Assembly (NCBI GenBank): GCA_023539495.1
Contig: JAKCEV010000001.1
Location: 1-59,083 of the forward strand
Direction: 5' to 3'
DNA: 59,083 nt
Origin: Candidatus Wolframiiraptor allenii
GTDB taxonomy: Archaea > Thermoproteota > Nitrososphaeria_A > Caldarchaeales > Wolframiiraptoraceae
Every line of letters starts with the position of its first letter. Positions within the stretch are counted from its first letter, which is position 1. A model generated the notes under the pieces. The model was not told where the DNA came from and did no database searches. It was given only the letters and a program-made list of their open reading frames with translations. Below, one piece after another: positions 1 through 55,829 of the stretch. The translations under genes were made by a program, and so were the position numbers.

Positions 1-147
1 GTCGAGCATCCTGAGGCCATTATCGACGAGCGTCCTAGCGATGACTGATGGCGGCCTGTGTCTCTCAACAGCGGCAAGCGTCGAGTCCACGTAATCCAAG
101 ACTCCAATAATGCCCGCTTCCTCGAAGGTATTCACGTAACCAGCCAT
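1..147 (-). CDS. ORF-A copy 1: small protein of a 3-copy window-internal family (N-terminal part only; the rest lies left of the window)
   Basis: Reverse-strand translation from the ATG at 147-145 gives MAGYVNTFEEAGIIGVLDYVDSTLAAVERHRPPSVIARTLVDNGLRMLD..., collinear with the ORFs at 14395-14649 and 54025-54291. An in-frame TGA (160-162) just upstream fixes the start. Confidence 0.55.
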   Translation of the reverse strand, partial: MAGYVNTFEEAGIIGVLDYVDSTLAAVERHRPPSVIARTLVDNGLRMLD

Positions 148-231
148 GCCCCCACAATATCATCTCAATACATGCCTGCCCTTATTTCTTAGGGACCTGC
201 CTGAAAATGGAAAGATTATTATGATGTCGGG

Positions 232-495
232 ATGCCGGGAAGCCGGCTAAAAATAGGATTCCATGGCAATGAGAAGACCCCGGAGCAGATACTCATAATA
301 CCGTTCAGGGAGGGGGAAGATGTTAAGTATTTCGTGGTGAGGGGTGTGAGAGAAGGCGATAGGCGCGTGACGAGATGCGACATGGTCAGGATAACGGGGC
401 TGGGATCGGCTGTCGAATATCTCGGGGATGTATGGGAGGAGATGTGGGACGCCATGCTATTCAAGCTGAAGGCCGCCGAGACAAGCATGCCATAA
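232..495 (+). CDS. ORF-B copy 1: 87-aa protein of the same repeat cassette (the only intact copy)
   Basis: ORF track 232..495. The C-terminal two thirds are conserved at protein level with copy 2 (KYFVVRGVREGD.RVTRCDM.RI...EYLG.VWEE.WDAMLFKL.AAE..MP), with mostly conservative or synonymous differences. Confidence 0.55.
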   Translation: MPGSRLKIGFHGNEKTPEQILIIPFREGEDVKYFVVRGVREGDRRVTRCDMVRITGLGSAVEYLGDVWEEMWDAMLFKLKAAETSMP

Positions 496-506
496 ACATC
501 ACAACA

Positions 507-545
507 CCCCATATTTTTATCCCCATTTTTATCTCCCATTTTTCG
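507..545 (+). terminator. Oligo-T archaeal terminator tract after ORF-B copy 1
   Basis: ccccatatttttatccccatttttatctcccatttttcgg has three T5 runs. The same motif follows ORF-B copy 2 at 15013-15040. Confidence 0.5.
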
Positions 546-735
546 GAGACCTCTCAAAGAAATAAAAGCGATGTCAAGGAGTTTGAGCCGAGGATCTCCC
601 ATATAATCGCTGTAGAGTGGGTTGGAATCGGCTGGGATGAGGAAAACTATGAGCTACGAACTACTATATGATGTTAACATTTGTCGCTAACATTTATTTT
701 AAAGCTATTTTGAAGCTCATTAACGAGCAATCTAG

Positions 736-3501
736 GTGGGAGGCTTGAGGTTCGGGGCGGAGGAGTATTCCTTAAACTTCCTGATGGAGCGTGGTTATAT
801 TAGGAGGCGCTGCGTCAGCTGTGGTGAATATTTCTGGACACTTAACCCGGATAGGGAGGTCTGTGGTGAGTCCCCCTGCGAGCCATACCGCTTCGTTGGC
901 AAGAGTCTGACTAGGCGCAGGATGAGCCTTCGCGAGGTTCGAGAATCATTTCTCAGGTTCTTCGAAAGAAGGAGCCATACGATAATCGCGCCATACCCTG
1001 TTGTTGCCCGCTGGAGATCCGACATATTCTTGACGGATGCAAGCATAGTTGACTTCCAGCCGTATGTAACGTCCGGGATCGCTCCTCCGCCAGCGAATCC
1101 TCTCGTCATAAGCCAGCCATGTATAAGACTCGTCGACATAGATAAGGTTGGGCTAACCTTTGGAAGACATCTCACAATATTCGAGATGGGGGGCGCCCAT
1201 GCCTTCAACTACCCTGACAGGGAGGTTTACTGGAAGGATGAGACCGTCCAATATTATCACGAGTTTGCTCAGGAGGTCTTTGGGATACCCGAGGAGGAGA
1301 TCATCTACAAGGAGGGGGTTTGGTCTGGTGGTGGTAATGCTGGCCCATGTTTTGAGGCCATCTCATATGGGCTTGAGGTGGCGACATTAGTCTTCATGCA
1401 GTATAAGACTGTTGATGACGAGCTGATCAAGCTCCCGATAAGGACTGTAGACACAGGGTATGGCATGGAGCGCTTCACATGGCTTACCCAAGGGACGCCA
1501 AGCTGCTTCGACGCGGTCTATGGCGAGCTATACCCGAGGCTTAAGGAGATAGTCGATTTCCCGGAGGTCGATAGGGAGCTCTTGGTCAAATATTCTCCAT
1601 ATACCGCCTTGGTTGTGCCAAAGGCTGGGATGACGATTGCTGAGGCTAGGAGGAGGATCTCAGAGGCGTCTGGAATCCCGCTGGAGACGATAGTGAATGT
1701 AATCGCGCCGCTCGAGAAGATCTACGCATCCTTGGACTTCACCAAGTCGATAACGTTCATAATAAGCGAGGGAGTTGTCCCGTCAAATGTAAGGGTTGGG
1801 TATCTCGCGAGGCTCCTCATAAGGAAGGCTTATAGGCTCCTCAAGGAGCTCGGATACGAAGATAGGCTCATAGATCTGATAAACCTCCAGATAGACTACT
1901 GGGGCGGGGATTTCCCCCATCTGAGGGAGATGAGGGACGAGACCATCGATATAGTCGAGCATGAGATTAGGAAGTTCGAGGACACTATAGCGAAGGGTGT
2001 GGAATACATTGAAAGAGAGCTCTCGGAGATGAGGAAAAGGGGTGCATCCGAGGTGCCGCTTGAATTCATTATCAGGGCTTATGATGAAAGGGGGGTAACG
2101 CCCGATATCGTGAGACCGGTTGCGGAGAGGCTTGGAATGGAGATAAACATCCCTGAGAACTTCTACGAGCTTGTTGCATCAAGGCACTTGAGAGAGGAGC
2201 CTGTAAGAGAGGCTGATGAGAGGATAAGGCTCCTCGAGGAAGAATTCAAGGATCTCCCTGCGACGGAGAAGTTCTATTACAGGGATCCAAGCATGCTCGA
2301 GTTTGAGGCTAGGGTGCTGCGCGTACGCGAGAATCATGTCGCGCTAGATAGGACATGCTTCTATCCTGAGGGCGGTGGTGCTGTATCTGATCAGGGCATA
2401 CTGAGGCACTCAAGGGGTGAGTGCAGGGTTATTGATGTTCAGATTCTGGAGGGCGGGGTAATCGTCCACCGGGTTGAAGGCCCCCCACCAGCTGAGGGTG
2501 AGATCGTCAGGGGCATTGTTGATCGTGAGCGCAGGTTCTCCCTCATGCGGCATCACACAGCCACCCATATAATCTTGGGCGCTGCTAGGAGGATTTTGGG
2601 GAAGCATGCATGGCAGGCTGGAGCTAGGAAGGAACCGGGCTTCGCGAGGCTCGACATAAGTCATCATAAAAGGCTCAGCCTAGAGGAGGTTGTACGCATA
2701 GAGGAAGAGGCGAACAGGATCATAGCTGCTAGGATACCGGTCAAGATCATGGAGATGGATAGGAATGAGGCTGAGAGGCGGTATGGATTCCAGCTTTATC
2801 AGGGTGGGGAAGTTCCATCAGCCACAATAAGGGTTGTGGAGATACCTGGGTGGGATGCAGAGGCTTGTGGAGGACTTCACGTTGAGAACACGGAGGATGT
2901 TGGGCTGATAAAGATAATCAGGACCGAGCGAATACAGGATGGTGTTGAGAGGCTTGTATTTGTGGCCGGGCCAGCGGCCCTACGATACATCCAGCAGAGC
3001 TGGCTCATGACCTTGAGGCTTGCAGAGAAGCTTGAAGCACCAGTGGAAGCTATTGAGAAGGCGCTGGATGAGACGTTATCTGAGCTCAAGAGGCTTAGAT
3101 CATTAGCGAGGAGACTCCTCTCAGCTGTAGCCGAGCTGAGATATCGCGAGCTAAAAGAGAAGCCCATAATTATGAGCGGGATAAAGGTCTACGTGACGCG
3201 GGAGCTCGAGGACGACAGGGATTATATTCTCAAAATCTCGGATAAGCTTTTGGCCGTCGATGAGCCCGCATGCCTTATCGCAGCGTATGGTGGTGAGAGG
3301 CCGTACCTGCTAGTCACGGCTAATGAGGCAGCCATAAAATCCGGGATACATGCTGGAAAACTTGCCTCAATTATAGCTGGGGAGCTTGGTGGAAGAGGTG
3401 GAGGTAGGGATCGGCTCGGACAGGGGGGCCTGGGAGAAGATGTATCGAAAGAGAGGTTGGAGGGGGTCTCGATAAGAGCTCTACATCAACTCTTGAAGTG
3501 A
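736..3501 (+). CDS. alaS: Alanyl-tRNA synthetase
   Basis: 921 aa. Archaeal AlaRS N-terminus (FL.ERGYIRRRCVSCGEYFWT), editing-domain HxxxH (MRHHTATHIIL) and CGGLH motif, C-terminal DHHA1-like GGRGGG. The start may be GTG 736 or TTG 745. Confidence 0.95.
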   Translation: MGGLRFGAEEYSLNFLMERGYIRRRCVSCGEYFWTLNPDREVCGESPCEPYRFVGKSLTRRRMSLREVRESFLRFFERRSHTIIAPYPVVARWRSDIFLTDASIVDFQPYVTSGIAPPPANPLVISQPCIRLVDIDKVGLTFGRHLTIFEMGGAHAFNYPDREVYWKDETVQYYHEFAQEVFGIPEEEIIYKEGVWSGGGNAGPCFEAISYGLEVATLVFMQYKTVDDELIKLPIRTVDTGYGMERFTWLTQGTPSCFDAVYGELYPRLKEIVDFPEVDRELLVKYSPYTALVVPKAGMTIAEARRRISEASGIPLETIVNVIAPLEKIYASLDFTKSITFIISEGVVPSNVRVGYLARLLIRKAYRLLKELGYEDRLIDLINLQIDYWGGDFPHLREMRDETIDIVEHEIRKFEDTIAKGVEYIERELSEMRKRGASEVPLEFIIRAYDERGVTPDIVRPVAERLGMEINIPENFYELVASRHLREEPVREADERIRLLEEEFKDLPATEKFYYRDPSMLEFEARVLRVRENHVALDRTCFYPEGGGAVSDQGILRHSRGECRVIDVQILEGGVIVHRVEGPPPAEGEIVRGIVDRERRFSLMRHHTATHIILGAARRILGKHAWQAGARKEPGFARLDISHHKRLSLEEVVRIEEEANRIIAARIPVKIMEMDRNEAERRYGFQLYQGGEVPSATIRVVEIPGWDAEACGGLHVENTEDVGLIKIIRTERIQDGVERLVFVAGPAALRYIQQSWLMTLRLAEKLEAPVEAIEKALDETLSELKRLRSLARRLLSAVAELRYRELKEKPIIMSGIKVYVTRELEDDRDYILKISDKLLAVDEPACLIAAYGGERPYLLVTANEAAIKSGIHAGKLASIIAGELGGRGGGRDRLGQGGLGEDVSKERLEGVSIRALHQLLK

Positions 3502-13256: not shown

Positions 13257-13376
13257 GGTCGAGGAGGGTGCGGATATGGGCCCGGTGAGACTTAAACCCA
13301 TGACGTCATGCCCAACAGTGGATAAGAATCCTCCCTTGTAAGATCCCCTAGCCCCTTCACGGAGGCCTCCTCGACC
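13257..13376. repeat. 11-bp perfect inverted repeat (ggtcgaggagg / cctcctcgacc) enclosing 98 nt with internal palindromes
   Basis: Arms at 13257-13267 and 13366-13376. Internal atgacgtcat (13300-13309) and ggaggcctcc (13361-13370). Lies between the convergent HIT and LAGLIDADG gene ends. Confidence 0.8.
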
Positions 13377-13386
13377 ATAATGATGG

Positions 13387-14394
13387 TCACATAAACGCGG
13401 TGAACTGGTAAGTATGCGTGTAAAAGGGGGAAAGGGGGTGGGTTAGTATTCTAGTCTTCCAGTTCTTCTCAAGTAGTTTACCAGGCGTTCTTGTTTCCTC
13501 CTTATGGTGAATCCTATATACTTGTAGAACCCCCATATTACAGCTCCGTTTCACGTAAACATGGTACACATCACGTCGGCGAACATATTGTTTTCCTTTT
13601 ATGTGCGTTATTGATCCTCGTTGATGTAGAAGGTTCGGGCCCGTCGTTGCTATCTTAAATCTTCCAAGAAGGGACTGCACATACTTCAAGAGGCGATAAT
13701 CGCTGTTCACTACATAAATTGACCCATCTTTCAATACGCCCCCTTCCGCGTCGAAGAACCCCCTAAGGAATGCGGCGCTGCACTTATCACAGTGTTCAAT
13801 GTATTTCCTCAACCTCTCGAGGTCAACCGGCTTTTTCAACAGTTCGTAGAGTGTCTTCGACTTAACCTGGGTGTAATAGTAGTAGCGACCTGTCGATCTC
13901 AGGATTTTCGGTTTGTGCGGTGGCCTGTTCAGTACTCTGCCTATCCTTATAGCAAATTCCTCGACAAACTCTTTATCCTTCGCCCTGAGGTGTATTCTGG
14001 CTTGCTTGTAGCCTTTGCGGTCGCGCCTTGTAGTACCAACATATCCATCGCCGCAAACCACGCCGATCACATATGCTAAATCCTCGGAAGGCTCCAACAG
14101 TTCCAGCGAAGGTATCCTCCCTTTGTTATACGGACTATGCAGTCCTCGTACCCATCCACTTATCTGGCACCTGGATAGCTCAATCCCGTATTCCTGTTTG
14201 ATTACATGTCTGATCTTATTGTTCGACAGTCCTAGTTGGCGAAGAGCCATAACCCTATCATACAGCTTTATCCTAAGCTCTCTGGGCCGATATTCTCCCC
14301 TCCTCCTACCATCACCTACAATTTGGGCCTCCTCTCTCCGGACCGAATCCGATCCACTTTGCCGCGGCCCACTCTTCGTCTGCGTCATCTTCAT
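13387..14394 (-). CDS. Free-standing double-motif LAGLIDADG endonuclease with N-terminal HTH; C-terminus apparently frameshifted
   Basis: Motif 1 LAYVIGVVCGDGYV, motif 2 AAFLRGFFDAEGGV. N-terminal HTH-like LRQLGLSNNKIRHVIKQEYGIELSRCQISGWV. After the C5 run at 13530-13534 another frame reads GFYKYIGFTIRRKQERLVNYLRRTGRLEY* (stop 13443-13445), which looks like the genuine LAGLIDADG tail. Confidence 0.75.
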   Translation of the reverse strand: MKMTQTKSGPRQSGSDSVRREEAQIVGDGRRRGEYRPRELRIKLYDRVMALRQLGLSNNKIRHVIKQEYGIELSRCQISGWVRGLHSPYNKGRIPSLELLEPSEDLAYVIGVVCGDGYVGTTRRDRKGYKQARIHLRAKDKEFVEEFAIRIGRVLNRPPHKPKILRSTGRYYYYTQVKSKTLYELLKKPVDLERLRKYIEHCDKCSAAFLRGFFDAEGGVLKDGSIYVVNSDYRLLKYVQSLLGRFKIATTGPNLLHQRGSITHIKGKQYVRRRDVYHVYVKRSCNMGVLQVYRIHHKEETRTPGKLLEKNWKTRILTHPLSPFYTHTYQFTAFM

Positions 14395-14649
14395 TCACCC
14401 CCCGAGGACTTCATAGAGTAAGCCATGAAGCTCCTCGCAGACGTGGTTCATTACCTTGCCAACGTATCCGCGGTATTCTCTGGCGAAGCCGTCGAGCATG
14501 CTAAGGTCATCATGGATAAGCGTCCTAGCGATGACTGATGGCAGCCTATACCTCTCAACAATGGCAAGCGTCGAGTTAATGTTATCCAAGACCCCGACGA
14601 ACTCCCTCATGAGGCCGGCCTCCTCGAAGACATCCACGTAATCAGCCAT
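14395..14649 (-). CDS. ORF-A copy 2 (84 aa), stop codon abutting the LAGLIDADG start (TGAATG)
   Basis: MADYVDVFEEAGLMREFVGVLDNINSTLAIVERYRLPSVIARTLIHDDLSMLDGFAREYRGYVGKVMNHVCEELHGLLYEVLGG. GGAGG Shine-Dalgarno-like element directly 5' of the ATG at 14649. Paralogous to copies 1 and 3. Confidence 0.6.
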   Translation of the reverse strand: MADYVDVFEEAGLMREFVGVLDNINSTLAIVERYRLPSVIARTLIHDDLSMLDGFAREYRGYVGKVMNHVCEELHGLLYEVLGG

Positions 14650-14696
14650 ACCTCCACAATACCATCCCAATACATGCCTGCCCTTATTTCTTGGGG
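14641..14696. repeat. Left arm of a long inverted repeat (ORF-A promoter, leader and ATGGCTGAT)
   Basis: The reverse complement gggtccccaagaaataagggcaggcatgtattgggatggtattgtggaggtatggctgat matches 15046-15109 with a few mismatches and small gaps. Confidence 0.8.
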
Positions 14697-14725
14697 ACCC
14701 GCCTGAAAATGGAAAGATTATGATG

Positions 14726-14990
14726 ATGCCGGGAAGCCGGCTAAAAATAGGATTCCATGGCGATAGAGGGACCTCGGAGCAGATACTTATAATACCTTAT
14801 CAAGGATGGAGAGGATGTCAAGTATTTCGTGGTCAGGGGCGTGAGGGAGGGTGATGGGCGCGTGACGAGATGCGACATGATCAGGATAATGGGCTGGGAT
14901 CAGTTGATAGAATATCTCGGGGAAGTCTGGGAGGAGCTATGGGACGCAATGCTATTCAAGCTGAGGGCCGCCGAGGCGGGCATGCCGTAA
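14726..14990 (+). pseudogene. ORF-B copy 2, carrying a 1-nt insertion relative to copy 1
   Basis: 265 nt from ATG to TAA against 264 nt in copy 1. The N-terminus MPGSRLKIGFHGDRGTSEQILIIP runs into a stop. After the shift the frame reads KYFVVRGVREGDGRVTRCDMIRIMGWDQLIEYLGEVWEELWDAMLFKLRAAEAGMP*. Confidence 0.5.
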
Positions 14991-15045
14991 GGCTGAAGCC
15001 AATATCACAATACCCCATATTTTTATTTCCCATTTTTCGGGCGCT

Positions 15046-15109
15046 CCCCAAGAAAATAAGGGGAGGTGTGTATTGGGATGGTATTATGGGGGCGAGGGGT
15101 ATGGCTGAT
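15046..15109. repeat. Right arm of the inverted repeat, downstream of ORF-B copy 2
   Basis: ccccaagaaaataaggggaggtgtgtattgggatggtattatgggggcgaggggtatggctgat. It is followed by a 37-codon ORF (15101-15214, MADAGNEAVKK...) unrelated to ORF-A beyond the third codon. Confidence 0.8.
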
Positions 15110-51036: not shown

Positions 51037-52767
51037 ATGAGCAGGAGCCATCTCGCCGCGTTGATAGCGATACTAATGCTCTTTTCGAGCTTGATGGCGG
51101 CCTACTGCCAAGAGATATCGCTGACGGTTCACGTCCATGATCTTCTTAGAAAGAGCCTAGATGGCATCGAAGTTAGGCTGATTAGAGGCGTCGAGGTTAG
51201 GCGATTCGTAACAAACTCAACGGGCTATGCCGAGTTCAAGTATCTCGAGCCGGGCGAGTATAAACTTGAGGTGGTTGTCGGGAACGTGACTGTTGGCGAG
51301 AGGGCTGTAAGGATCCCGGATGATCGGCTCGTTGATGTTGAGGCCAGAGTTGGCGAGATTGAGCTCAGGTTCCTAAACTTGGATGGCGAGCCTGTCAAGG
51401 GACTTAGGGTTGAGCTGCGCGCCGGCGGCTACGCCCACTCAACCGAGTCCGATGATAAGGGCATGGTTAGGATTGCGCGGATCCCATATAGCGATCTGAA
51501 AGGTGTCGGAGCCTACTCCCTAGTCATAAATATGGGTAAGCTAGTGATCTATGAGGGCTCTCTCGAGGTCTCTGAGCCAAGGGTTTCCAAGAACATGACA
51601 CTGCCTCTCGCAAGCATGAGGCTCACGGTCGTGAATCTCGAGGGTGAGCCCGTTCCCAAAATCACTGTCAAGCTATCTTCTGGAGGATATTCCACAGAGG
51701 GAAGATCTGATAGCGGCACCCTAGCCTTCAAGAACCTGCCATTATCCGAGGTTAGCGGCGTCGGCATCTACAAGATTAATGTCTCGATGAGGGTTGGGCG
51801 CGGCGACATGCCGATATACTATGAGGAGAGGAGTATAGACAGGAGCGCGAACATCTCTCTGATAGCTGATCTCGCGAGGCTCAGGGTGAGGGTCATTGAT
51901 GAGGATGGTGAGCCTGTTAAGGGTGTGGTTGTGAGCCTGAGTAATCGGCTTATGGCCAACTTCACCTCGAGCCAGACTGACAAGAATGGTGAGGTCGTCT
52001 TTGAGAATGTGCCGCTTAGCAGGGGCATGGTCAGCGCCGGGGCATACGTGATCCAAGCGATAAGAGCTGGCAGGATTATAGGGGAGCTGAGGACGGAATT
52101 CGAGAAGCCAGGAACAATTCTAGACGTGGTTGTCATGAGGGGTGAGCAGAGGCTCAAGCTCCTAGATTATCATGGCAGGCCCCTCGCCGGGTACTTAGTA
52201 AGACTCGTGGACGAGATTGGCGGGGAAAGCCTCAATGCCTCGACGAATGATCTTGGTGAGGCTGTCTTCAAGATCTTCCACGGCCCATACATAATGGAGG
52301 TATATAGTAATGGGAGACGCATACGATCATCATCCATTCAGCTGGCCGGCGGATTCTTGGAGATCAAGCTCAATGAAGTGAACTTTCCTCTAAGCATAAA
52401 AGTTGTTGATGTCATGGGGAGACCTATCAGCTCGGGCCATATAGAGGTGAGCGCCGAGGGCAGAACCCTGATCAGTAAGGAGCTAAGCGGTGAGCCTGTT
52501 AATCTTGACCTGCCATATCCTCTTGAGCTACGATGCGACATCTACTCAGATGACGGGAGGCTCCTGCATAGGGAGCTTCTCCACGTATATGGGCCTCGGG
52601 AGCTGGTCGTGGAGCTGAGGGGATACATCTTCCTAGGCGGCATCATGGAGCTCGAGGCTGTCGCCGCGGCGGTAGTGCTCGCCATAGTAGCGGCATGCGC
52701 CCTCTTCTCAGCCGCCCTAATCATCAGGGCTAAGAAAAGGAGAGGAGGGAAGCCAAGAAAAGGCTAG
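51037..52767 (+). CDS. Secreted, C-terminally anchored surface protein with ~6 tandem beta-sandwich (CarboxypepD_reg-like) repeats
   Basis: Signal peptide MSRSHLAALIAILMLFSSLMAAYCQ. Recurring unit L.V.(V/F).(N/D).(D/E)GEPV.G..V.L...........D..G...F..(V/I)P. C-terminal TM helix plus basic tail RAKKRRGGKPRKG. Confidence 0.7.
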   Translation: MSRSHLAALIAILMLFSSLMAAYCQEISLTVHVHDLLRKSLDGIEVRLIRGVEVRRFVTNSTGYAEFKYLEPGEYKLEVVVGNVTVGERAVRIPDDRLVDVEARVGEIELRFLNLDGEPVKGLRVELRAGGYAHSTESDDKGMVRIARIPYSDLKGVGAYSLVINMGKLVIYEGSLEVSEPRVSKNMTLPLASMRLTVVNLEGEPVPKITVKLSSGGYSTEGRSDSGTLAFKNLPLSEVSGVGIYKINVSMRVGRGDMPIYYEERSIDRSANISLIADLARLRVRVIDEDGEPVKGVVVSLSNRLMANFTSSQTDKNGEVVFENVPLSRGMVSAGAYVIQAIRAGRIIGELRTEFEKPGTILDVVVMRGEQRLKLLDYHGRPLAGYLVRLVDEIGGESLNASTNDLGEAVFKIFHGPYIMEVYSNGRRIRSSSIQLAGGFLEIKLNEVNFPLSIKVVDVMGRPISSGHIEVSAEGRTLISKELSGEPVNLDLPYPLELRCDIYSDDGRLLHRELLHVYGPRELVVELRGYIFLGGIMELEAVAAAVVLAIVAACALFSAALIIRAKKRRGGKPRKG

Positions 52768-52801
52768 CGTTCTGGGCTTTTTAGCCCTTCCTCCCTCTTT
52801 C

Positions 52802-54028
52802 TCATTGGGAGGCTTTCGGGGGGGAACGCGAGCTCCCCACATCTATCTGGCGCTGACAATCAAAAGGTTTTAAGGTTTTGGCGTTCATGCACTCCTCGTA
52901 ATAGCGCTTCACCAGATTCTTCACAGCTATCACATCTCTGTCCTCTTCTAGGCCGCATCTCTGACATTTCATCAGCCTGTGCCCATTCGGGCTTATAGCA
53001 AGCTCACCCCCGCATACCGGGCATATTTTTGAAGTGTTCCTAGGATCAACGTATTTTACGGCTTAATCTATGAAGCTTCGCCTGATACTCCAATATCCGC
53101 TGGAATCTAATGTAACTCCATCTATGTATCCTCCCATTAAGTTCCCTAGAGCCCTTATCCTCTTTATGGACGCTGAGATCCTCCATCACAATTATGGTGG
53201 CCCCAACCTCCTTAGCCTTATTGATTATCTCCTTGGCCGCCCTATTGTAGATCTTCCTGATCCTCCGCCACTCCCGTCCCCTATACTTCCCCAGCAACCT
53301 CGCCCGCAGCCCTCTGCCGCGAATCTTCGATTGTATCCGCCGGCGCTTGAGGAAATATTGCGTCCTAATGATACCCTCCTTCGTCTCAAATCTCCCGACG
53401 AAATCATTGTTTCCATATACGATGGCGTTCTCATTAACGTCGACGGCGATAACCTTGGCGTCCGCGCTCACTTCCGGCAACACAACGGCCTGACGGAAAG
53501 CAACATGCAGATAGGCAGATAGAGATTATTATCATCCTTCAACACCAGCCGCGCCTCACCCAGCTTCATGTTCTTAAACTGCTCATGATACCTCCCGTGA
53601 AGCAGTCTTAATGTAACCCATCCCCCTCCATGGACTGCTATTGAAGCCCTCCAGTTTTCAGCATCGAGTTTGAATAACTTATTGCCCAACCATATTGTCC
53701 GCCTCCCGAACACCGGCCTTTCCCTTTCACACCTTCCCAGCTTTTTCACCTCTATGAAGGACTCGTAAATGCTGGCGGCATGCCGACAAGCACATTGAAT
53801 ATACTGTGATGGCAGTGTTGGATATTTCTGTCGTAGCTCGCGATACTTCGCATGATGCAGGCTAATAAAACTGGTGACCCTATATGAATGGGCATATTCG
53901 ATGAGTTCATTCACGATCCTCTGATATTCCTCGAATATGCGGTATATCTTGGAGATCGCCGCCTCATCAACATCCGTGAGATCCACCTTAAACCTCGCGG
54001 TAAACTTTATTTCCTCAACCGGCATCAT
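52802..54028 (-). pseudogene. tnpB: IS200/IS605-family TnpB (RuvC-like RNA-guided nuclease), split into three frames
   Basis: Fragment 53468-54028 is the N-terminal OrfB region. Fragment 53046-53483 has RuvC-I IAVDVNEN and RuvC-II IVMEDL. Hand-translated fragment 52802-53059 reads VKYVDPRNTSKICPVCGG...CQRCGLEEDRDVIAVKNL (Zn ribbon plus RuvC-III). Disrupted by the 8-bp duplication at 53507-53522 and a 1-nt indel near 53060-53075. Confidence 0.85.
53507..53522. repeat. 8-bp tandem duplication GCAGATAG-GCAGATAG inside tnpB
   Basis: Removing one unit restores ...NNLYLHVAFRQAVVLPEVSADAKVIAVDVNEN..., joining fragments 1 and 2 in one frame. Confidence 0.85.
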
Positions 54029-54291
54029 CGCTCACCTCTGAAGCCCTCGCATTCCTCGAAGGTCTCATAGAGTAGGCTTCTCAGCTCCATGCATACATGG
54101 AGCATCACCCTGCCAACGTATCCGCGATACTCCCCGGCGAAGTCATCGAGCATGCTGAGGCCCTCATGGACGAGCGTCCTAACGATGACTGGCGGCGGCC
54201 TGTATCTCTCGGCGACGGCCAGCGTTGAGTCCACGTAATCCAAGACTCCAATAATGCCCGCCTCCTCGAGGGCATCCACGTAACCATCCAT
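54025..54291 (-). CDS. ORF-A copy 3 (88 aa), overlapping the tnpB start by ATGA
   Basis: MDGYVDALEEAGIIGVLDYVDSTLAVAERYRPPPVIVRTLVHEGLSMLDDFAGEYRGYVGRVMLHVCMELRSLLYETFEECEGFRGER. Start chosen by homology with copies 1 and 2. Confidence 0.55.
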   Translation of the reverse strand: MDGYVDALEEAGIIGVLDYVDSTLAVAERYRPPPVIVRTLVHEGLSMLDDFAGEYRGYVGRVMLHVCMELRSLLYETFEECEGFRGER

Positions 54292-54508
54292 GCCTCCACA
54301 ACACCATCCCAATACATGCCTGCCCTTATTTCTTGGGGACCTGCCTGAAAGTGGAAGACTATTATGATCATGCCGAGATGCCGGGAGGCTGGCTAAACAT
54401 AGGATTCCATGGTAATAGAGGAACCTCAGAGCAGACACTCATAATACCGTCAGGGAGGGGGATGATGTCAGGCATTTCGTGGTCAGGGGTATATGTGAGG
54501 GCGACAGG
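54057..54508. repeat. Repeat cassette copy 3 (ORF-A, promoter region, 5' third of ORF-B); similarity ends abruptly near 54508
   Basis: Collinear with 14403-14860 and 1-370. After ...gagggcgacagg the sequence diverges into the hairpin at 54518-54551. Confidence 0.8.
54378..54508 (+). pseudogene. ORF-B copy 3 remnant (frameshifted and truncated)
   Basis: MPGGWLNIGFHGNRGTSEQTLIIPSGRG, then out of frame relative to copy 1. Homologous DNA continues (DDVRHFVVRGICEGDR in another frame) and stops at about 54508. Confidence 0.4.
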
Positions 54509-54517
54509 CAAAAGTCT

Positions 54518-54551
54518 TAGACTATCTAGGGTCTATGACCTAGATAGTCTA
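54518..54551. repeat. Perfect 13-bp stem / 8-nt loop hairpin (tagactatctagg-gtctatga-cctagatagtcta)
   Basis: Read directly. Located 10 nt beyond the cassette homology breakpoint. Confidence 0.85.
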
Positions 54552-54603
54552 CCTAGAAAGATGGTGAGAGATATATACGTGAAAAAAGAAAAAGGCTAAT
54601 AAC

Positions 54604-54975
54604 ATGGAGATTCCGCGAAATTATGAGATTAATTTGACTCAGAGCGGGCGGATGGCGGGGGATAAGCCCGACTGGACCCTGAGCAGGAATCCAACGGAGG
54701 TCTGCAATCCGCTTTGCAGGTACTTTAGGTGTGGGAGGAAGGACTTGGACTTTAAGAGGAATCCGCCATGGTGTGGCTGGGTTAACTCTCCCTGTGTCGG
54801 CTATAGGTGCAATTACGCCCTCTGTATCCAGAAGAAGCTTCTTCCGGATGGTAGATGCGCCCTCTTCGTCAAGAGGAAGACGGAGGAGGAAGAGAAACCG
54901 GAGATGCTGGAGTCTGGGCTTAGGATCGGCGCCGCTGATAGAGTTAGGAAAAAGTTGGATAAGTTCGGGATCTAG
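54604..54975 (+). CDS. Cys-rich small protein (8 Cys), function unknown
   Basis: CNPLCRYFRCG...WCGWVNSPCVGYRCNYALC...GRC spacing suggests two metal sites. Basic/acidic C-terminal tail. Confidence 0.45.
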   Translation: MEIPRNYEINLTQSGRMAGDKPDWTLSRNPTEVCNPLCRYFRCGRKDLDFKRNPPWCGWVNSPCVGYRCNYALCIQKKLLPDGRCALFVKRKTEEEEKPEMLESGLRIGAADRVRKKLDKFGI

Positions 54976-55829
54976 GCTTTGGCCACAATGTAGCCGGAGA
55001 TCACGATAAGCGCTCCGCCTAGGATGTCAATCGGCCCTAGGAGCTGCTCTAGGAAGACCGCACCCATTATCGTCGCGCTTAGGGGCTCTAGGTAAGTTAG
55101 GACAACTGCCTTATGCGCCTCCACCATCGCGAGGCCATAGAAGTATAGTGTCACAGCTGAGCAAGTGTTCATGCCGGAGAGTATTAACAAGAGGATCCAT
55201 TCCGATGTTGAGAGGCTCGGTGCCATGGGCCGGGATATGACCGCTAAGAAGATCGCCGCGAACACATATGAGTAGAACGCCGTGGTGAGGCTTGACTGCC
55301 CCTCCCTAAGCTTCTTCGATACGATTATGAAGCCGGCGTAGCTCAGACCTGCAAGAAGCCCGTAGATTATCCCCAAAATGTCTCCGGAGACACCTCGAAT
55401 CAGCTCCTCATGGGAGATCAAACATATGCCGAGGATCGACATTAACAGGGCCACGACTGATGTTTCCCTAATCCTTTCCTTCAGTATTACAGGAGATAAT
55501 ATTGCTGTGAAGACCGGGCCGAGGTAATTTAGGAGGACTGCCTCAGCTATCGGAATGAGTTTCATTGAGGCGAAGAGGAACGCCCAGCCAAGGGATAGGA
55601 GGAGGCCGTTTAGGATTAGGGGCTTCCAGCAGGACGTGATGCGCGCGAGATCATTCACTCTGAAGATCACCATGAAGGGGAGGAGGATTAGCGAGGCGAG
55701 GAAGACCCTGAAGAAGGCGATCGTGAATGCATCGAGGCTGATCATATTCACGATCACGCCATTTAATCCCCAGAGGACCGCTGCCGACGATATTGAGAGT
55801 ATCCCGAGAGGCCGTGTGCTCTTCCTCAT
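54972..55829 (-). CDS. EamA/DMT-family transporter
   Basis: Ten predicted TM segments in two EamA repeats. Start trimmed to MRKSTRPLGIL (55829). Confidence 0.8.
   Translation of the reverse strand: MRKSTRPLGILSISSAAVLWGLNGVIVNMISLDAFTIAFFRVFLASLILLPFMVIFRVNDLARITSCWKPLILNGLLLSLGWAFLFASMKLIPIAEAVLLNYLGPVFTAILSPVILKERIRETSVVALLMSILGICLISHEELIRGVSGDILGIIYGLLAGLSYAGFIIVSKKLREGQSSLTTAFYSYVFAAIFLAVISRPMAPSLSTSEWILLLILSGMNTCSAVTLYFYGLAMVEAHKAVVLTYLEPLSATIMGAVFLEQLLGPIDILGGALIVISGYIVAKA

Follow-up and report, generated by a model that had tools for sequence, protein, structure and literature searches.

A conserved ORF-C/ORF-A head precedes a decayed tnpB gene and other nuclease genes in Candidatus Wolframiiraptor allenii

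Introduction

Cas12 descends from TnpB, which is itself a compact nuclease for genome editing. IS200/IS605 transposons have asymmetric ends with subterminal hairpins at both, insert 3′ of a TAM (transposon-adjacent motif) and make no target duplication. What, then, is a small gene doing directly in front of a tnpB gene, in the place where a tnpA transposase gene would be expected? This question is raised by a locus in a 59,083-nt stretch of DNA (hereafter the window), which is an entire contig of a MAG (metagenome-assembled genome) from Candidatus Wolframiiraptor allenii, order Caldarchaeales. A first-pass annotation of the window had described a tnpB gene preceded by a small open reading frame (ORF), ORF-A, and had suggested that ORF-A might be a novel TnpB partner if it belonged to the element. 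Here, we find that the best overall explanation, which we hold with moderate confidence, is that 52768-54510 is a decaying, non-autonomous, tnpB-only OMEGA (for obligate mobile element-guided activity) element of the IS200/IS605 superfamily, built on a head made of ORF-A and a second, divergent gene, ORF-C. What is new is not the absence of TnpA; it is this uncharacterised, conserved ORF-C/ORF-A head, which, within a single archaeal genus, stands with nucleases of both the RNA-guided and the protein-guided kind.

The window tnpB is a recently inactivated gene with a canonical catalytic layout

On the minus strand of the window, tnpB is split over three reading frames (53468-54028, 53046-53483 and 52802 to ~53047). 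The 3′-most piece matches the Pfam family Cas12f1-like_TNB (PF07282) with an E-value of 9.5e-12. An intact relative of the same TnpB family, called family 1 here, matches PF07282 (E 1.4e-19) together with PF27234 in precomputed annotation, and the intact relatives show that the N-terminal part of family-1 TnpB is of the PF27234 MJ0013 type. The motifs that had been assigned to a reconstructed protein could all be located, although in a pseudogene: RuvC-I (AVDVNEN, 53427-53447), RuvC-II (MEDL, 53175-53186), RuvC-III (DRD, 52931-52942) and the zinc-ribbon motifs CPVCG (53009-53023) and CQRCG (52952-52966). The RuvC-III motif is in its usual place after the zinc ribbon, so that family-1 TnpB has the canonical catalytic layout, namely the RuvC-like nuclease domain of a TnpB/OMEGA effector, which is split (D, E, D) and interrupted by a zinc ribbon (TNB); in the window it is present in a copy that is frameshifted twice.

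An orthologous metagenomic contig (L012) has the same flanks, is 94% identical to the window over 54586-52627 and carries an intact TnpB. Compared with L012, the window has an 8-nt tandem duplication (CTATCTGC twice, 53507-53522) and a 1-nt insertion near 53061. In L013, another orthologous contig, 454 bp are deleted internally. Since the orthologue is intact and the window copy has two frameshift lesions, the window tnpB is a recently inactivated pseudogene; its frameshifts are genuine and are not sequencing noise that calls for reconstruction. In this copy, the third in the window, ORF-C is broken as well and ORF-A is intact. In a search for an empty site, no fetched locus had the flanking genes of the window without the element.

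The 3′ end of tnpB resembles an omega-RNA scaffold

In alignments with other family-1 copies, the match to the window reaches down to 52765-52769. Among the copies compared there are 13 distinct flanks, which diverge completely after the shared terminus ...GGGC(T/A)AAAAGCCCAGAACG. The last conserved base in the window is 52768, which abuts the stop codon (52765-52767) of a convergent gene of 601 amino acids; the element had been described as stopping within about 35 nt of that stop codon, and this is corrected to direct adjacency. In many copies the final ~110 nt lie mostly past the TnpB stop codon, and their conservation exceeds that of the coding region. Several short stems had been pointed out here, and they are real and conserved: three hairpins (GGGGA/TCCCC, CCTCCC/GGGAGG and GGGC/GCCC) are followed by AGAACG, with the right-end hairpin 6 nt from the terminus. 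When the three hairpins were tested over 18 copies, four of them more divergent, 99.2% of the cells were paired, three base pairs were changed on both sides (e.g. CCTCCC/GGGAGG, CCCCTC/GAGGGG and CCCTCC/GGAGGG), and all slid controls scored much worse. Since the copies tested are interrelated, this pairing gives moderate support for the structure and not proof.

A covariance model of the right end (R1) has a single match in the window (137 bits; Table 1), and outside the window it matches at the 3′ ends of family-1 tnpB genes only. No omega-RNA or other RNA family of Rfam matched over 52300-55000. For 200 nt at the 3′ end of tnpB, RNAalifold gave a weak consensus whose long-range pairs lack credibility, and the single-sequence fold of the tnpB 3′ end had a z-score of -1.2. 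A scaffold resembling omega-RNA, which had been expected at this place, is thus located there by the structure test and the covariance model. Taken together, these results suggest that the tnpB 3′ end holds a conserved structured RNA that terminates at the right end and is followed by a variable flank, and 52768-52892 likely resembles an omega-RNA scaffold plus transposon right end. By analogy with established TnpB biology, the guide would be taken from the flank, starting at 52767 and running towards lower positions. A guide predicted in this way would be antisense to the end of the neighbouring 601-amino-acid gene, covering its final codons and its stop codon. At least two independent insertions (window 52765-52768 and L095:4739-4752) have a convergent host gene whose stop codon touches or overlaps the right end.

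ORF-A and ORF-C are protein genes that diverge from a conserved control region

The stop codon of ORF-A overlaps the start codon of tnpB as ATGA (...GGTGAGCGATGATGCCG), as reported in the first-pass annotation and as read directly in the sequence. The start of ORF-A had been placed at 54438 and is moved here to the ATG at 54291, which gives a protein of 88 amino acids (MDGYVD...) in agreement with the lengths of its homologues and with the gene call of the source record, also 88 amino acids. About 330 homologues of 80-92 amino acids were found in hot-spring metagenomes and Wolframiiraptor MAGs. In 57 distinct intact copies (1586 pairs), variability by codon position follows the order third > first > second, and the median ratio of nonsynonymous to synonymous substitution (dN/dS) is 0.26. 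ORF-C, which had been overlooked, is a second conserved gene that runs divergently from ORF-A and encodes ~87 amino acids, with 274 homologues and a dN/dS of 0.41. These results show that ORF-A and ORF-C are genuine protein genes under purifying selection. In the window, the third copy of ORF-C is a frameshifted remnant of which nothing is left beyond about codon 45; the outer inverted-repeat arm has been lost too, with all that would lie on its far side.

Between the two genes, an alignment of the three window copies shows that the ~85 nt upstream of ORF-A are conserved above either coding region. The core of this control region is CCCCAAGAAATAAGGGCAGGC at 54318-54338, and a TATA-like AAATAA lies ~40 nt from both start codons, features by which the region may serve as a promoter for both genes. 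Where a copy is complete, a stretch of 22-59 nt from between the two genes, with the core CCCCAAGAAATAAGGGCAGGC, is repeated in inverted orientation just past the stop codon of ORF-C, which thus lies between inverted repeats ~280-350 nt apart.

IscB/IsrB elements carry a guide-RNA scaffold on their 5′ side. The high conservation upstream of ORF-A, above that of ORF-A itself, would fit an explanation in which the stretch upstream of tnpB is non-coding, either a structured RNA or a regulatory region, and ORF-A is an artefact. For ORF-A this is effectively refuted by the codon pattern and the dN/dS over the 1586 pairs, by hundreds of intact ORFs of constant length, by remote homologues that keep the protein pattern at 25-35% identity, and by the lack of an Rfam match.

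Searches of Pfam, NCBIfam, PADLOC and PHROGs and a profile search against the PDB gave no match to ORF-A. Among 1.84 billion cluster representatives, a profile search found just 57 relatives, all of them small proteins. No relatives of ORF-A were found in scans of GTDB representative genomes and IMG/VR viral contigs, nor relatives of family-1 TnpB in a scan of GTDB genomes. The AlphaFold2 model of ORF-A has four helices and no beta strand, at a low-confidence predicted local distance difference test score (pLDDT) of 66; the predicted fold of ORF-C (pLDDT 61) has four strands and one helix. The ORF-A family is uniformly acidic, with a median isoelectric point (pI) of ~4.6 compared to 9.4 for TnpB. 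With a family-1 partner the tail of ORF-A is longer (...FEEGEDFGGER), and with the other cargo types it ends in ...LGGE.

At least six independent copies of ORF-C shift frame at one place, around codon 28 in the IIPFREGED region. The site is a G/C-rich run (GGGAGGGGGA), seen for example at window 54452-54461, L002:4815 and L018:4837-4843; the shift may reflect slippage at a hot spot, or it may be deliberate.

Head and nuclease gene very probably form one unit, and the head is exchanged among nucleases

We fetched 91 related loci, which were dereplicated to 63 ORF-A units. A nuclease-type gene starts 3-57 nt after ORF-A in 62 of them. This cargo is a family-1 TnpB, as in the third window copy, in 24 of the 63 units; a TnpB of a second family (OrfB_IS605 plus TNB) in 31; a helix-turn-helix (HTH)-LAGLIDADG protein in three; and a protein of ~250 amino acids with sub-threshold similarity to the IS110 DEDD domain in four. 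In the one unit without cargo, a family-2 tnpB has lost 1247 bp internally; this pair of loci (L001 compared to L029) was first considered as an excision, a reading that the internal deletion rules out. As for the suggestion of a novel TnpB partner, ORF-A is supported as a member of the unit rather than a neighbour by chance, but it is not specific to TnpB, since LAGLIDADG and 250-amino-acid cargo follow it too.

On several lines of evidence, it is very probable that these nuclease units include ORF-A as an integral partner. No space is left between ORF-A and tnpB for a left element end. Diverged family-1 TnpBs (63-68% identity), which were retrieved with TnpB and not ORF-A as the query, are also preceded by ORF-A or an ORF-A-like gene: an ORF-A homologue precedes the diverged TnpB in L095 (hmmsearch E 8e-27), a truncated one occurs in L095/L096, and a remote ORF-A-like protein precedes TnpB in L093 and L094 (full-length hhalign E 1.6e-4, 25-34% identity over ~85 residues). 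L093 and L094 lie in different contexts, and the similarity between them takes in the ORF-A-like gene, spanning from about its codon 20 to the GCCCAGAACG end. Finally, an insertion-deletion difference carries head and nuclease as one block. Compared to the window at ~16229/16230, just upstream of a radical-SAM gene, L028:702-2726 holds one extra complete unit of ~2025 nt, which consists of a small leftward ORF, ORF-C, ORF-A, a LAGLIDADG gene and a 3′ tail with a sharp end (...CATGACGTCATGGATTTAAG). The left flank ends in ...GAGTCAAG and the unit in ...GGATTTAAG, with no target duplication. For at least one unit, head and nuclease are thus either both there or both missing, as one block and with no target duplication. 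Element ends that exclude ORF-A were sought and were not found.

The head is also modular. When L027 (family 1) was compared with L063/L083 (family 2), ORF-C, the control region and ORF-A were 96% identical until 26 nt before the ORF-A stop codon, after which the sequences were unrelated. These results show that the head has been exchanged by recombination among four cargo types, with the breakpoint in the last ~10 codons of ORF-A. The correlation between ORF-A identity and TnpB identity was rho 0.08 in the core set and rho 0.60 once distant copies were added, with pairs that are not independent. It would appear that ORF-A and family-1 TnpB are the older pairing and that the head was later recombined onto other nucleases within Wolframiiraptor.

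The same modularity could be explained if ORF-C and ORF-A were an independent cassette, either MITE-like (miniature inverted-repeat transposable element) or a selfish pair, with the nucleases inserted at its preferred 3′ edge. Four unrelated cargo genes have the head in common, the junction is always at the 3′ end of ORF-A, the inverted repeats enclose ORF-C alone, the head outlasts a tnpB deletion, and the identities of head and TnpB are uncorrelated in the core set. However, apart from the single internal tnpB deletion, none of the 63 units is an intact head free of a nuclease, and the ATGA overlap or the gaps of 3-57 nt leave no room for a left end. In addition, the diverged family-1 TnpBs keep an ORF-A-like gene without ORF-C or the repeats, their inter-copy similarity includes that gene, and the difference between L028 and the window moves head and nuclease jointly. 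We therefore consider an independent cassette distinctly unlikely.

The ~250-amino-acid cargo (L019:5279-6040; also L033, L035, L042 and L087), which does not occur in the window, has a KSDE(N/A)DA motif and no other homology. As regards an assignment as an IS110 DEDD recombinase, which would have DEDD_Tnp_IS110 and Transposase_20 domains, the similarity to PF01548 is sub-threshold (E 0.11-0.12 in two of three members) and there is no PDB sequence match.

The element has no recognisable transposase, and its left side is a mosaic

Neither a Y1 (HUH) TnpA nor an IS607-type serine TnpA, as an autonomous IS200/IS605 or IS607 element would carry, is found in the element, and no Y1 or serine transposase was found among the Pfam-annotated genes of the loci read or among 10 unassigned small ORFs of the window. 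The first-pass annotation was thus right that ORF-A occupies the tnpA position and that no TnpA is recognisable, but the significance given to this falls away: most OMEGA elements are tnpB-only (PMC10691335), so that a missing TnpA is the norm and unremarkable. Nothing in the sequence or the predicted structure suggests that ORF-A, with 88 amino acids, an acidic composition, an all-helical prediction and no HUH/Y1 features, stands in for TnpA as a transposase.

It may still be asked whether ORF-A and/or ORF-C are mobility machinery of another kind, either a small recombinase of a new type or a factor directing recombination, which functionally replaces TnpA. The tnpA position of ORF-A, the lack of TnpA among the window ORFs checked and the annotated loci, the multiple copies of the units, and the inverted repeats as potential recombination sites would agree with such a role. 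However, both proteins have only ~88 amino acids, match nothing in any library and lack features of the HUH/Tyr, serine-recombinase, DDE or DEDD types, ORF-A is acidic and predicted to be all-helical, and a replacement is needless given that tnpB-only elements are the majority of OMEGA elements (PMC10691335). This role is very unlikely.

The favoured reading, a tnpB-only OMEGA element, agrees with the known elements of this type (IS1341-type, in the IS200/IS605 superfamily) in the RuvC-I/II/III motifs and zinc ribbon, the multiple copies, the absence of tnpA, the structured 3′ non-coding end with a sharp stop and a different flank per site, the absence of terminal inverted repeats, and the absence of target duplication in the one available insertion-deletion difference, which concerns a LAGLIDADG-type unit. 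In each respect testable on the right half, the window element matches them. It differs in that window-type elements carry ORF-A, ORF-C and the inverted duplication of the promoter region, and in that the upstream module also serves nucleases other than TnpB.

On the left side, a perfect hairpin had been taken as the boundary of the block. This 13-bp palindrome is real (no match in 100 shuffles) but it is not an element end, as it is confined to the window and the orthologous contigs L012 and L013 and is absent from the other 90 loci. The similarity of the window copy to other copies ends at 54509/54510, since its upstream part is truncated. The palindrome lies ~20 nt upstream of an ATATATA box and ~50 nt upstream of a Cys-rich gene of 123 amino acids that starts at 54604 and has no family match, and it could be the operator of that gene. 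In pairwise and multiple alignments, the commonest left boundary across copies is the outer inverted-repeat arm, beyond which there is a mosaic of alternative arms, each common to subsets of copies, with small leftward ORFs. Comparison with other TnpB loci therefore yielded a shared right end, but a common left end was not delimited.

A possible role for ORF-A

How the unit might work can be outlined as follows. One divergent promoter would drive ORF-C in one direction and ORF-A, the nuclease, the structured 3′ end and the guide read from the flank in the other. ORF-A, small, acidic and helical against a basic nuclease, would be translated first from the shared mRNA and may bind or otherwise restrain the nuclease, acting as a safety catch or an antitoxin-like partner. 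ORF-C and the duplicated promoter- or operator-like repeat on both sides of it might set the transcription of the unit. Spread could occur through nuclease-driven homing and recombination between copies, or through a transposase acting in trans, with ORF-A not being the transposase. We propose restraint or regulation of the nuclease as the function of ORF-A only tentatively. As a still more speculative extension, the head might be a portable chassis in Caldarchaeales for selfish DNA-cutting enzymes, with recombination inside ORF-A exchanging what stands behind it, namely TnpBs of two families, a LAGLIDADG homing endonuclease or a possible DEDD enzyme; ORF-A would then be a broad modulator, such as a natural TnpB inhibitor or a DNA mimic, and the units a new class of modular homing elements without a dedicated transposase.

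Several points weigh against this view of the element and of ORF-A. A physical link between ORF-A and the nuclease is a proposal only, and one binder for structurally unrelated nucleases such as TnpB and LAGLIDADG proteins is not obviously expected. Foldseek searches with the AlphaFold2 models of ORF-A and ORF-C (pLDDT 66 and 61) returned nothing. The head persists after deletion of the nuclease in L001, which fits a selfish head too. The alignments gave no clean left end of the family-1 element, its upstream arms being mosaic; since the left end is not delimited, no TAM was derived, and an IS200/IS605-type mechanism is presumptive for the left side.

Restraint of the nuclease has been discussed for another group of archaeal genes. 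Pairs of ribbon-helix-helix (RHH) or MazE proteins with TnpB, in which a small protein gene lies upstream of tnpB, were proposed as toxin-antitoxin systems, and the published clade has non-mobile tnpB genes with a rearranged catalytic site (Altae-Tran et al. 2023, PMC10691335). The units described here resemble these pairs in that they are archaeal, have a small gene directly upstream of tnpB and invite the idea of restraint. They could accordingly be viewed as toxin-antitoxin modules in which the nuclease is the toxin and ORF-A a labile antitoxin, so that loss of the module kills the cell and mobility is secondary. A small gene translationally coupled to the nuclease gene directly downstream, an acidic ORF-A facing a basic nuclease, the precedent of the RHH/MazE-TnpB pairs (PMC10691335) and the narrow distribution of the ORF-A family all point this way. 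However, ORF-A has no RHH, AbrB/MazE or other antitoxin signature (no match in Pfam, NCBIfam or PADLOC; predicted four-helix fold without beta strand; pI 4.6), and the motifs of family-1 TnpB are canonical, not rearranged as in the published clade. The multiple copies, the sharp omega-RNA-like end and the varied flanks are traits of apparently mobile OMEGA elements and not of fixed loci. A single antitoxin would also have to neutralise unrelated enzymes, as ORF-A accompanies LAGLIDADG and other genes as well, and the second, divergent gene and the inverted repeats would be left unexplained. We consider a toxin-antitoxin module unlikely.

Elements with additional genes are known as well. IS200/IS605 or IS607 elements bear rare cargo, namely HTH, WhiA/meganuclease-like and unclassified proteins, in TnpA-bearing elements (PMC10691335). 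The present units likewise show that TnpB elements can bear extra small or meganuclease-like genes, but here the LAGLIDADG gene replaces TnpB behind the head rather than riding along, and there is no TnpA. The ORF-C/ORF-A arrangement is not described in PMC10691335, and no description of the module was found in the literature on TnpB with LAGLIDADG, IS1341 or gene neighbourhood, or on Wolframiiraptor.

With free-standing LAGLIDADG homing genes, copy 2 of the window and three related units share an intact HTH-LAGLIDADG gene, and one LAGLIDADG unit differs between contigs as a whole block, again with no target duplication. TnpB itself acts as a homing nuclease for its own element. We know of no conserved two-gene head upstream of classical homing genes and of no chassis that they have in common with RNA-guided nucleases, whereas the LAGLIDADG genes here stand behind a two-gene head, on a chassis common with TnpBs.

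These units touch on how TnpB is controlled inside cells and on the persistence and spread of tnpB-only elements, which are very common. ORF-A, a conserved, lineage-specific small protein coupled translationally to TnpB as well as to a homing endonuclease, makes a concrete candidate for a regulator or inhibitor that such nucleases have in nature, and the components are thermostable. One promoter-and-gene head across RNA-guided and protein-guided nucleases is a natural case of module exchange on a selfish chassis. If ORF-A is merely a passive passenger, the finding shrinks to an unusual tnpB-only element that bears cargo, in a single archaeal genus.

Other copies in the window and neighbouring features

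The window holds three combinations of head and cargo (copies 1, 2 and 3), whose features are listed in Table 1. The cargo of copy 2 matches Pfam LAGLIDADG_3 (E 1.9e-14) and has two LAGLIDADG motifs in one chain, LAYVIGVVCGDGY and FLRGFFDAEGG. Its 3′ tail is ~95 nt of conserved non-coding sequence with a CATGACGTCATG palindrome and a sharp end, ...CATGACGTCATGGGTTTAAG, at 13291. In copy 1, the outer inverted-repeat arm ends at ~568, 168 nt upstream of alaS (alanyl-tRNA synthetase, 736-3501); this arm is an outward-facing copy of the promoter-like core. The orthologue of copy 1 (L092:4600-6264) has a frameshifted ORF-A with a degraded family-2 TnpB as its cargo. In the L028 strain, the radical-SAM gene is flanked by units on both sides.

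Table 1. Positions of the head, cargo and end features in the 59,083-nt window.
Feature	Position	Strand	Basis or remark
Copy 1	1-568	-	alignment and orthologous contig L092
Copy 1 ORF-A, 5′ part	1-147	-	cut by contig end
Copy 1 ORF-C, intact	232-495	+	
Copy 2, head plus HTH-LAGLIDADG	13291-15092	-	sequence comparison, Pfam
Copy 2 HTH-LAGLIDADG gene, intact, 335 amino acids	13387-14394	-	
Copy 2 ORF-A	14395-14649	-	
Copy 2 inverted-repeat arms	14651-14709 and 15034-15092		
Copy 2 ORF-C	14726-14990	+	frameshifted
Copy 3 flank just 3′ of right end (CTAGCCTTTTCTTGGCTTCC), putative guide site	52748-52767	-	position from right-end boundary
Copy 3 family-1 TnpB 3′ end, right end and likely omega-RNA scaffold	52768-52892	-	sharp boundary, pairing, covariance model
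Copy 3 tnpB, family-1 pseudogene	52802-54028	-	ORF pieces, Pfam, motifs, intact orthologue L012:571-1713
Copy 3 ORF-A, 88 amino acids, acidic, predicted four-helix	54025-54291	-	homologues, dN/dS, AlphaFold2
Copy 3 divergent control region shared by ORF-A and ORF-C ('IR-R' arm)	54292-54377	.	three-copy alignment
Copy 3 ORF-C remnant, divergent gene of ~87 amino acids	54378-54511	+	tblastn to ORF-C residues 1-28 and 26-45
Perfect 13-bp palindrome	54518-54551	.	locus-specific, not of the element family

The small ORFs of the left arms encode a basic protein of ~120 amino acids, an acidic protein of ~70 amino acids and a CPKCG...CPKCG zinc-ribbon protein, none with a Pfam match (L027:430-700, L028:702-860, L060:3597-4016, and the left arms of L023, L050, L001 and L007). 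A left-arm 'hairpin' (GGCCCCGCACTTCGGGC) was discarded as a structural feature, being coding sequence of the CPKCG zinc-ribbon motif. Some copies have a further conserved family of 139 amino acids beyond the outer repeat, again without a Pfam match, and some loci have extra genes nested between ORF-C and ORF-A. In L031:880-1628, a longer, diverged ORF-C (136 amino acids) runs divergently from a 123-amino-acid fragment of a DNA primase large subunit (PF04104, E 9e-23). ORF-A and a family-1 TnpB lie 1.4 kb further in the same locus, behind a membrane-protein gene of 141 amino acids, and ORF-C is not paired with ORF-A there.

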